NCBI GenBank assembly: GCA_963820525.1
Contig: CAWGAA010000001.1
Location: 2,240,001-2,304,000 of the forward strand
Direction of reading: 5' to 3'
DNA from: an uncultured Spirochaetota bacterium
Lineage (GTDB): Bacteria; Spirochaetota; Spirochaetia; SZUA-6; Fen-1364
DNA: 64,000 bases
The notes below the pieces were generated by a model that made no database searches, had not been told where the DNA came from, and worked only from the letters and a program-made list of their open reading frames with translations. Each line of letters begins with the position of its first letter. Position 1 is the first letter of the stretch. The position numbers and the translations under genes are program-made. Below, in pieces: positions 58,802 through 61,503 of this stretch.

Positions 58802-60268
58802 ATGATCAACCTCGAGGTGGATGCCGCGGCGCGCGCGCGCAATATCGCAAGGTGCAGGGAGCGGGGGGTCATCCTTCCCACCTTTGCCCAGATGCGAGAC
58901 CCCGCGCTGATCCCCGCAGGGGTGAAGGGGCGCCTGAAAAAGGTCGGTTTGTGGGACCTGGACCCCGGAAACCTCTTTCGCATCTCCTGGCACAACCAGC
59001 CCATTCCCAGCGGAGGTCTGTTCGGGGCTGTAAACCGAATCGAGTTTCCCCGCGAGCTTACGGGAGTTTCGGCCCGCATCATCGCCCTTGTCGGCAAGTG
59101 GTTTCCCACGGGTGCGCACAAGGTGGGAGCCACCTACGGCTGCCTGGCTCCGGCCCTGGTCACGGGACGATTCGATTCGACCAGGCAGAAGGCTGTCTGG
59201 CCGTCGACGGGGAACTACTGCAGGGGCGGCGCCTTCAACTCGGCCCTCCTGGGGTGCACCTCGATCGCCATCCTCCCCGAGGGGATGAGCAGGGAGCGCT
59301 TCCAGTGGCTTTCCGGCATCGCGGGCGAGGTGATCACGACTCCGGGTGGAGAGAGCAACGTGAAGGAGATCTTCGATGCGTGCCGCGAGCTTTCCCGCAA
59401 ACGCGGGGACGACATCGTGATCTTCAACCAGTTCGAGGAGCCCGGTAACTATCTCTGGCACCACGAGGTAACGGGAGAAGCCCTTGTCTCGCTCGCCTCG
59501 GAGGAGCTGGATAGAGGGGGCGAGCTTCGCGCCTTCATCTCGTCCACGGGCTCGGCAGGCACGATCGCGGCGGGAGATCGCCTCAAGGAGGCGTTCCCGG
59601 CGGTGAAGATCGCCGCTGCCGAGGCCCTCCAGTGCCCCACTCTCCTTTCCAATGGCTTTGGCGCCCATCGCATCGAGGGAATCGGGGACAAGCACGTCCC
59701 CTGGATCCACAACGTGAGGAATACGGACGTCGTGATCGCCGTGGACGATGAGGACTGCATGCGCTGCCTGCGCCTGTTCAACGAGCCGGAGGGACGGAGG
59801 CTCCTCGAGGAGTCCGGCGTGCCCCGGGCTCTCATCGACTCTCTCCCCCTTCTGGGGATTTCAGGCATCGCAAACCTCCTGGCATCGGTGAAGCTCGCCC
59901 TCCACTTCGAGATGGATGAGCGGGAAATCGTTCTCACGGTGCTTACCGATTCGATGGAGCTGTACGGCTCGCGGCTCGGGGAGCTTGAACGCCAGAAGGG
60001 CCCATTCGGTCGGGACGAGGCCGTGCGTGCCCACGCGATTTCACTCTCCGGCCAGCGGGCCGACAACGTGCTCGAGCTTGACTGGCGCGAGCGAAAGCGC
60101 GTGCATAATTTGAAATACTACACGTGGGTGGAGCAGCAGGGAAAGAGCGCCGTAGAGCTCGCCGATCAATGGTCCAGCCGGGAATACTGGAAGGGGATTC
60201 AACTGCAAGCGGCCCGGATCGACGGGCTCATCGAAGAGTTCAACCGCGAGGCGGGAGTCTCCGGGTGA
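58802..60268 (+). CDS. Fold-type II PLP-dependent enzyme (cysteine synthase-related, uncharacterised)
   Basis: FPTGAHKVG (Schiff-base Lys), PSTGNY, GSAGT, HRIEGIG. Confidence 0.85.
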   Translation: MINLEVDAAARARNIARCRERGVILPTFAQMRDPALIPAGVKGRLKKVGLWDLDPGNLFRISWHNQPIPSGGLFGAVNRIEFPRELTGVSARIIALVGKWFPTGAHKVGATYGCLAPALVTGRFDSTRQKAVWPSTGNYCRGGAFNSALLGCTSIAILPEGMSRERFQWLSGIAGEVITTPGGESNVKEIFDACRELSRKRGDDIVIFNQFEEPGNYLWHHEVTGEALVSLASEELDRGGELRAFISSTGSAGTIAAGDRLKEAFPAVKIAAAEALQCPTLLSNGFGAHRIEGIGDKHVPWIHNVRNTDVVIAVDDEDCMRCLRLFNEPEGRRLLEESGVPRALIDSLPLLGISGIANLLASVKLALHFEMDEREIVLTVLTDSMELYGSRLGELERQKGPFGRDEAVRAHAISLSGQRADNVLELDWRERKRVHNLKYYTWVEQQGKSAVELADQWSSREYWKGIQLQAARIDGLIEEFNREAGVSG

Positions 60269-61503
60269 GCGTCGGATACGCATGCGTGAGCTGCGGCCGC
60301 ACCTATCAGACCGACGAGGTCATCTACCTGTGCCCGGCGTGCAGCGCTGAGAAGGCGGCGGCCGGAGGCGGGTTTCAAAAGGGGATCCTCATAACGACCT
60401 TCCAGCCCCGGGAGAGCTTCAGGCCGGGCCTCCCCATGGACCCGAAGCTGTTCCTGCCGCTCGCCGCGGAAAACGCCGCGTTCAGCGCCGGAAACACCCC
60501 CCTGGTCGAGCCCCATGCCCTGCGCCGAAAGACGGGCTTCCCGCGGCTCTTTTTCAAGAACGAAGCGCTCAACCCCTCCGGATCGCTCAAGGACAGGGCT
60601 TCGATGCTCGTCGTCGAGCAGGCGAGGCTCCACGGGGAGAAGCGGATCGCCCTTGCATCCACCGGGAACGCCGGAGCTTCAATGGCCTGCGCGGGGGCAG
60701 CCTGCGGCCTCCAGGTCGTCCTCTTCGTTCCGGCCGCGGCGCCGCGCGCCAAGCTCCTTCAGGCGCTTCTCTTCGGGGCCAAGGTTGTCCCCATTGCGGG
60801 GCCCTACGACGAGGCGTTCCGCCTTTCCATCGAATACACGACGCGCCATGGGGGGATCAACCGCAACACGGGCTTCAACCCGTTCACGATCGAGGGCAAG
60901 AAAACGGTCTCGATCGAGATCTTCAATCAATTGGACTGCATGGTACCCGATGCCGTGTACGTTCCCACGGGAGACGGGGTCATTCTCGGCGGCGTATGGA
61001 AGGGGTTTTCGGACCTCGTTACGGCAGGCCTGGCCGAGAAGATGCCTGCCCTGATTTCGGTTCAGGTGGATGGCAGCAATGCCATCGCCCGCAGCTGGCG
61101 GGAGGGGCGCCAGGTGGCACTTGAGCGCGCATCGACCATCGCAGACTCCCTTGCGGTGGCCTCCCCCGTCAACGGCGAGATGGCCCTCCAGTGCCTGGCG
61201 AAGACGGGCGGCAGGGCCGTCGAAGTGAGCGATGAAGAGACGAGCCGCGCCCAGGCCGAGCTGTGCAAAGAGAGCGGTCTTTTCGTGGAGCCTTCGTCGG
61301 CGGCGGCGTGGGCGGGGTTCAGGAAGGACATTCCGAATCTTGATCCGGGCTCCCGCGTCGTGGTCCTCCTCACGGGAACGGGTTTCAAGGACATCGCCGC
61401 GGCGGAAAAGCTCGTGAGCCTTCCCGACGCCTGTGCCCCGGATCTCGATAGCGCCCTTCGCCTGCTGGAGAGCTCCTATGGGATCAAAAGCGGAGAGCCG
61501 TAG
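60265..61503 (+). CDS. Threonine synthase-like PLP enzyme
   Basis: N-terminal CxxC..CxxC, GNTPL, NPSGSLKDR, ASTGNAG, EPSSAA, LTGTGFKD; GTGA overlap. Confidence 0.88.
   Translation: MSVGYACVSCGRTYQTDEVIYLCPACSAEKAAAGGGFQKGILITTFQPRESFRPGLPMDPKLFLPLAAENAAFSAGNTPLVEPHALRRKTGFPRLFFKNEALNPSGSLKDRASMLVVEQARLHGEKRIALASTGNAGASMACAGAACGLQVVLFVPAAAPRAKLLQALLFGAKVVPIAGPYDEAFRLSIEYTTRHGGINRNTGFNPFTIEGKKTVSIEIFNQLDCMVPDAVYVPTGDGVILGGVWKGFSDLVTAGLAEKMPALISVQVDGSNAIARSWREGRQVALERASTIADSLAVASPVNGEMALQCLAKTGGRAVEVSDEETSRAQAELCKESGLFVEPSSAAAWAGFRKDIPNLDPGSRVVVLLTGTGFKDIAAAEKLVSLPDACAPDLDSALRLLESSYGIKSGEP

Follow-up and report, generated by a model that had tools for sequence, protein, structure and literature searches.

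The reductive (2,8-dioxopurine) pathway of urate breakdown, which is relevant to gout and to engineered probiotics, was worked out as recently as 2025 and comprises XdhD-YgfM, YgfK, SsnA, HyuA, YgeW, YgeY, YgeX, and YqeA. The pathway takes urate to 2,3-diaminopropionate (DAP), and YgeX then converts DAP to pyruvate (PMC12507026; 10.1101/2025.04.24.650524). The ureido intermediates are assigned the R configuration in section 6 of 10.1101/2025.04.24.650524, and PMC12507026 reports that YgeX is equally active on both isomers of DAP and that albizziin (3-ureido-alanine) is an intermediate. In a commentary (PMC12990295), the stereochemistry of the pathway and the sequence in which the ureido groups are cleaved are listed as open questions.

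Here we analyze a 64,000-nt stretch of DNA from an uncultured Spirochaetota bacterium (the window: positions 2,240,001-2,304,000 of contig CAWGAA010000001.1, assembly GCA_963820525.1). Every gene of the 2,8-dioxopurine pathway except ygeX was found in this genome, which is 96.7% complete, and most of them lie inside the window. The genes are the same as in the pathway of Escherichia coli and Clostridium except for ygeX, and two other fold-II pyridoxal phosphate (PLP) enzymes are encoded here, which we call PLP-A and PLP-B. We argue that this pair is a real and widespread variant ending of a known pathway, with functions that are predicted.

58802..60268, + strand: PLP-A, a 488-amino-acid fold-II PLP enzyme related to CysK and CBS (Lys107, STGN at 135-138, ES at 184-185, C278, EGIGD at 292-296)
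60265..61503, + strand: PLP-B, a 412-amino-acid fold-II PLP enzyme related to ThrC (Zn-ribbon-like N-terminal CxxC...CxxC, Lys109, RNT..N..EGKKT, GDG)
58704..58801, no strand: the 98-bp gap between the starts of the divergent genes ygfK and PLP-A

A first-pass annotation of the window had described a coupled pair, one cysteine-synthase-related enzyme of 488 amino acids and one Zn-ribbon enzyme resembling threonine synthase, divergent from ygfK-ssnA. The open reading frames bear this out: both are real, the GTG start of PLP-B overlaps the TGA stop of PLP-A (GTGA), and the gap to ygfK is 98 bp. Judging by the overlap, the two genes are translationally coupled here, and the gap is likely a shared control region. 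The divergent layout of ygfK and PLP-A recurs in L220, L223-L227, and L241. In a profile search, both proteins carry the PALP domain (PF00291) of fold-II enzymes, and both have the PLP lysine, the GN loop, and the phosphate loop (K107, N138, and GSAGT in PLP-A; K109, N135, and GDG in PLP-B). The annotation had also recognized neither YgeX nor carbamate kinase in the window, and profile searches of the 64 kb agree. However, a carbamate kinase that scores above its cut-off lies on another contig (C3), which leaves YgeX as the one of the two that the whole genome lacks. The sole match to TIGR03528 in the genome is PLP-B itself, with 20.8 bits versus a cut-off of 532. The genome does have a separate thrB-thrC and a cysK elsewhere, all above their cut-offs.

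PLP-B and YgeX in genomes with SsnA

We scored four profiles in 349 of 351 genomes from the class of G051, which we take to be Clostridia; the sample is centered on G051 and is not a random draw. With thresholds of E <= 1e-80 for SsnA and at least 398 bits for PLP-B, 30 of the 349 genomes have SsnA, and of these 18 have YgeX, 12 have PLP-B, none has both, and none has neither (Fisher p = 1.2e-8, which is overstated by kinship). If we keep only the 21 genomes whose SsnA is above the curated cut-off, 15 have YgeX and 6 have PLP-B. On a quick SsnA tree with 35 rows, a minimum of four switches between YgeX and PLP-B is required. Conversely, SsnA is present in all 12 Clostridia with PLP-B and in all 14 with PLP-A, as compared to 30 of 349 overall. 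Across all 349 genomes, PLP-B and YgeX are not significantly related (p = 0.37), because most genomes have neither, so the comparison carries meaning only for genomes that have SsnA. YgeX without SsnA was seen in 23 of the sampled Clostridia. Four weaker matches to the PLP-B profile (288-293 bits), which keep the ThrC motifs NPxR and STGNT, were left out of the count.

Metagenomic loci show the same exclusion. Among 80 loci anchored on PLP-B, ygeX occurs in none, PLP-A in 37, and another pathway gene in 61; PLP-B often lies directly after ygeY. In a further four of the 80, the gene directly upstream encodes a short protein that resembles CysK and bears the signature of PLP-A. In the window's own family, YgeX is in 0 of 25 genomes and YgeW is in 22. 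Also, YgeY and a carbamoyltransferase are encoded within the stretches that we fetched around 11 of the 12 PLP-B clusters of Clostridia. PLP-B occupies the slot of YgeX in the pathway's gene set; PLP-A alone does not. With PLP-B in this slot and both YgeY and a carbamoyltransferase retained, DAP is presumably still made, and PLP-B is probably the DAP ammonia-lyase that stands in for YgeX. The retention of YgeY and YgeW also means that we do not favor PLP-A or PLP-B as a replacement for either of them.

A small RidA-like protein (a label given by eye) is encoded in three YgeX clusters, at L184:12675-13046 and, as relatives, in G239 and G385; it was seen in no fetched PLP-B cluster.

The variant is common: PLP-B is present in 12 of the 30 SsnA-bearing Clostridia and in 94 of 118 sampled Anaerolineae. 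Relatives of PLP-A and PLP-B are named cysteine synthase and threonine synthase in databases (in the ESM Atlas, only by automatic synthase names), and thousands of family members carry such names. Surveys that require YgeX will under-score these genomes, while those that accept any PF00291 gene will hide the swap. For instance, Fig. 3g of PMC12507026 scores any PF00291 gene near ssnA as "YgeX," so PLP-A and PLP-B would count as YgeX there. Neither enzyme is named in the examined passages of that paper or of 10.1101/2025.04.24.650524, and our literature searches, whose scope was articles without their supplements, returned no description of PLP-A or PLP-B in this pathway.

PLP-A as the partner of PLP-B

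PLP-A is encoded in 11 of the 12 Clostridia with PLP-B, and in the remaining one the PLP-B gene is cut by the contig end. Of the 18 Clostridia with YgeX, 3 have PLP-A. Because it is also found with YgeX, we view PLP-A as a partner of PLP-B rather than as a replacement for YgeX; clusters with PLP-A and ygeX and without PLP-B are found in G053, G054, G058, G027, and G034. The first-pass annotation had proposed that one or both enzymes replace YgeX and had expected both to be anticorrelated with ygeX. The proposal fits PLP-B, which alternates with YgeX among the 30 SsnA carriers, but not PLP-A, which sits in clusters with intact YgeX in those five fetched genomes. The annotation's alternative of a reaction on a ureido precursor, which would bypass the usual route, is not favored either, given YgeY and a carbamoyltransferase beside PLP-B. 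The linkage of the PLP genes to the purine pathway, in contrast, holds across phyla. We also considered whether the YgeX proteins adjacent to PLP-A lack the D-specific base, but of nine relatives that span the site, eight retain Asp120, so this idea is not supported.

In GTDB contigs, at least 595 matches to PLP-A were found. All of 8000 scored candidates were at E <= 1e-50. We analyzed the best 80 of these at least 595 loci: PLP-B is nearby (within 10 kb) in 49, another pathway gene in 49, ygeX in 3, and PLP-B and ygeX together in none. A whole-genome search of 50 of the 80 genomes, with a threshold of 400 bits, found PLP-B only in 37, YgeX only in 4, both in 5, and neither in 4; SsnA (E <= 1e-70) is present in 39 of the 50. 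Among 118 Anaerolineae, scored with profiles for PLP-A and PLP-B only (and not for YgeX or SsnA), 89 have both, 5 have PLP-B only, 9 have a member of the PLP-A family only, and 15 have neither. The two genes are frequently on separate loci. In 8 of the 9 Anaerolineae with PLP-A only, the protein is a more divergent relative, and the stretch fetched around it contains none of the pathway genes. Such divergent relatives, without PLP-B, are found at L302, L306, L307, L301, and L305; some have MKVG instead of HKVG, near sugar-transporter-like genes (labels by eye), and their role may differ.

Some clusters bring further genes to the pair. A homologue of N-carbamoyl-D-amino-acid hydrolase is encoded directly before PLP-B and PLP-A at L103:7752-8687, L094:6515-7447, and L259:4459. 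In two Acidimicrobiia, such a D-carbamoylase homologue (E = 1e-113) directly precedes the pair, and these genomes have a short YgfK-like gene and no match to YgeY; this layout fits with a D-amino acid feeding the pair, and it may show what the D-carbamoylases used in industry do physiologically. In several Anaerolineae (L045:3241-6196, L059, L060, and L076), the pair is preceded by genes for two different carbamoyltransferases and a carbamate kinase; together these might let the cell harvest both ureido groups as ATP. At L218:7353-9887, directly after ssnA, a cysteine-synthase-like domain is fused to a domain that resembles cysteinyl-tRNA synthetase (a label given by eye).

Sequences and predicted reactions of the two enzymes

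PLP-B is closest to short-form threonine synthases. Its best solved relatives are PDB entries 2ZSJ, 6CGQ, 1UIM, and 2D1F (E = 3e-49 to 2e-44), it falls less than 2 bits short of the cut-off of TIGR00260 (165.3 versus 167.1), and it scores 221.8 against a cut-off of 303 for PRK08197. It retains the KDR, STGN, EGxK, and EP motifs of these enzymes, but it lacks some of their key residues (numbering checked on 1UIM). The position of Arg160 is Thr, Met, Leu, or Val, with Arg in 0 of 61 matched sequences out of 62; Thr88 is replaced by Ala and Asn188 by Asp, each in 62 of 62; Gln164 is replaced by Lys; and Phe134 gives way to Tyr, as in the NYDD motif of YgeX, in every one of the 25 rows of alignment A1. 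We take Arg160, Thr88, and Asn188 to be the residues of ThrC that bind the phosphate of the substrate, and the loss of an Arg and gain of an Asp would suit a substrate with an amine side chain. With YgeX/DpaL (TIGR03528; PDB 4D9G, 5YGR), PLP-B shares its place in the gene set, the fold-II class, and Tyr181 within the motif that resembles NYDD. It differs in its origin from the ThrC branch, its very low score against the YgeX profile, and Thr133 where YgeX has Asp120. Both PLP-A and PLP-B have STGN where YgeX has TDGNH, which includes the catalytic Asp120; Lys77 and Asp120 of YgeX are named as potential catalytic residues in PMC4000059. Several matches to PLP-B have a TGA within them, and we considered and rejected selenocysteine: of 15 stretches, 13 gave a reading, and in all 13 this TGA is the terminal stop.

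PLP-A is only weakly CysK-like. It is far below every cut-off of its branch: CysK/CysM (108 versus 351 bits and 103 versus 344), CBS (66 versus 510), SbnA (38 versus 350), and cysteate synthase (22 versus 600). Its best solved relatives are in the CysK/CBS branch (also SbnA and DcsD), with E of about 1e-20 to 1e-22, and an O-ureido-L-serine synthase is among its PDB matches. The closest named relatives among the matches listed are from Spirochaetia, at 72-73% identity. PLP-A retains the GN loop and the QF, GxxGT, and GIG motifs of the branch, but KDR is changed to HKVG, TSGN to STGN, and QGIGA to EGIGD, and it has an extra ES motif and long extensions at both termini. Across 99 sequences of three subtypes, [ST]TGN, ES (in 97), Cys278, and EGIGD are conserved and the PLP lysine is retained. 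Acidic residues E184, E292, and D296 were gained in 97-99 of the 99; from the fold, we presume that these three sit near the substrate. A fold-II racemase would need a second base opposite the lysine; Thr136 and the nearby Glu184 are conserved in PLP-A, but CysK and ThrC likewise have a hydroxyl residue there. One subtype is short: 345-amino-acid proteins with the PLP-A signature are encoded directly before PLP-B at L282:3402-4436, L285:8891-9925, L292:1271-2305, and L296:2851-3885, and the one that was scored, from L285, is narrowly above the CysK cut-off. The tree did not group the short subtype with the long ones, so it gives no support to a common origin.

Putting these together, we propose that the pathway yields D-DAP; that PLP-A, acting one step before the lyase, most likely converts D-DAP to L-DAP; and that PLP-B, a descendant of ThrC that would prefer the L form, converts L-DAP to pyruvate and ammonia. 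Because YgeX accepts both enantiomers, it would not need PLP-A, while PLP-B would, and stereochemistry seems the simplest reason why PLP-B nearly always has PLP-A and YgeX mostly does not. We infer the racemase activity of PLP-A and the L-specificity of PLP-B more weakly than we do the lyase role of PLP-B. So the whole scheme, in which PLP-B is a DAP lyase that needs one enantiomer and PLP-A is the supplier of that enantiomer, is tentative. It is possible, with about the same reservation, that a cysteine-synthase-derived DAP racemase and a threonine-synthase-derived single-enantiomer ammonia-lyase end the urate pathway in a large share of anaerobes. If so, each of two fold-II branches would gain a new reaction, and there would be a direct handle on the stereochemistry of the pathway. 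The action of the pair on D- and L-DAP and on albizziin would bear on both of the questions listed in PMC12990295.

Several observations count against the proposed racemase and lyase. In G053, G054, G058, and G027, the YgeX beside PLP-A keeps Lys77, Asp120, and Asp189, so a racemase would be redundant there. Nine of the 98 Anaerolineae with a member of the PLP-A family lack PLP-B, and the three of these that were tested also lack YgeX. Five of the 50 PLP-A genomes have matches to both PLP-B and YgeX (one of them broken). Two metagenome-assembled genomes of Burkholderiaceae carry the pair, and matches to SsnA and YgeY were not found there. PLP-B has gained an invariant Arg200 and Lys212, and because these could still hold an anion, its pocket need not be charge-reversed. 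Finally, we know of no racemase in the CysK branch, and no paper on a DAP racemase came up in our literature search.

Could the pair instead be two complementary lyases, with PLP-B acting on D-DAP (the main product) and PLP-A on L-DAP, so that jointly they equal the dual-specific YgeX and no racemase is needed? The either-or pattern and the asymmetry between PLP-A and PLP-B fit this idea too. Where YgeX has Asp120, PLP-B has Thr, and so does D-serine dehydratase; CysK-type enzymes are L-specific; and PLP-A has gained the acidic residues noted above. But if L-DAP is only a minor by-product, then we would expect PLP-A to be lost more often than is observed (it is missing from 5 of 94 Anaerolineae with PLP-B and from none of the 11 Clostridia that could be scored), and we consider this arrangement unlikely, although it deserves to be taken seriously. 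We think it rather improbable that PLP-B is the DAP lyase while PLP-A eliminates or replaces the urea group of albizziin, as a shunt or for clean-up. Albizziin was an intermediate in one study (PMC12507026), enzymes of the CysK branch do handle ureido groups, as the O-ureido-L-serine synthase match illustrates, and the short PLP-A subtype is still above the CysK cut-off. On the other hand, such a role sits poorly with the YgeY and carbamoyltransferase of nearly all PLP-B clusters, there is no match to urease in this genome, and it would not account for the dependence of PLP-B, but mostly not of YgeX, on PLP-A.

Similarly improbable, in our view, is that PLP-A is the true lyase or that PLP-A and PLP-B are the subunits of a single lyase. 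In favor of this, the genes are coupled here and close together in many loci, and PLP-A is the more conserved of the two families (mean column identity of 70% versus 55%). However, there are clusters with PLP-A, YgeX, and no PLP-B, the genes are frequently on separate loci, and each protein keeps its own PLP lysine and phosphate loop. As for the names given by source databases, it is very doubtful that these are ordinary threonine and cysteine synthases, or that they serve a function unrelated to the purine pathway. PLP-B does nearly reach the TIGR00260 cut-off, but the genome already has its own thrB-thrC and cysK, key ThrC residues are changed in PLP-B, and SsnA accompanies every PLP-B and PLP-A in the Clostridia.

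Other genes of the window and the genome

The remaining pathway genes of the window are all on the minus strand:

55564..58703, - strand: ygfK, 2,8-dioxopurine reductase; starts at 58703, 98 bp from PLP-A; frame split near 56057
54245..55567, - strand: ssnA amidohydrolase, after ygfK; above the NCBIfam cut-off
29987..33343, - strand: ygeY (the first ~395 amino acids), above its cut-off; in one frame with a molybdenum subunit of the xanthine dehydrogenase family in this assembly
15153..18988, - strand: xdhD (above its cut-off) and a ygfM-like flavin adenine dinucleotide subunit (below its cut-off)
13957..15147, - strand: ygeW knotted carbamoyltransferase, above its cut-off
12566..13954, - strand: hyuA dihydropyrimidinase/hydantoinase, above its cut-off

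We considered whether ygfK is broken. Contigs from two of four sequencing runs (X2 and X4) have one extra G behind 56057, which restores the frame; the contig pieces examined from X1 and X3 do not span this position. Because of the additional G, the split is most likely an assembly error. The single 1118-amino-acid frame of ygeY and the molybdenum subunit (29987-33343, minus strand) may be a genuine gene fusion or may stem from a further indel in the assembly.

The pair in the Burkholderiaceae lies at L077:8638-11455 and L082:7953-11455, where it possibly acts in scavenging outside of DAP. Near the window, a cysteate synthase that scores above the TIGR03844 cut-off is encoded at L002:8521-9807, about 6.5 kb past the right end and separate from the pair. 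And within the window, a gene for a GlpA-like glycerol-3-phosphate dehydrogenase of just 387 amino acids (61484-62647, minus strand) converges on PLP-B, with an overlap of 20 bp between their ends.

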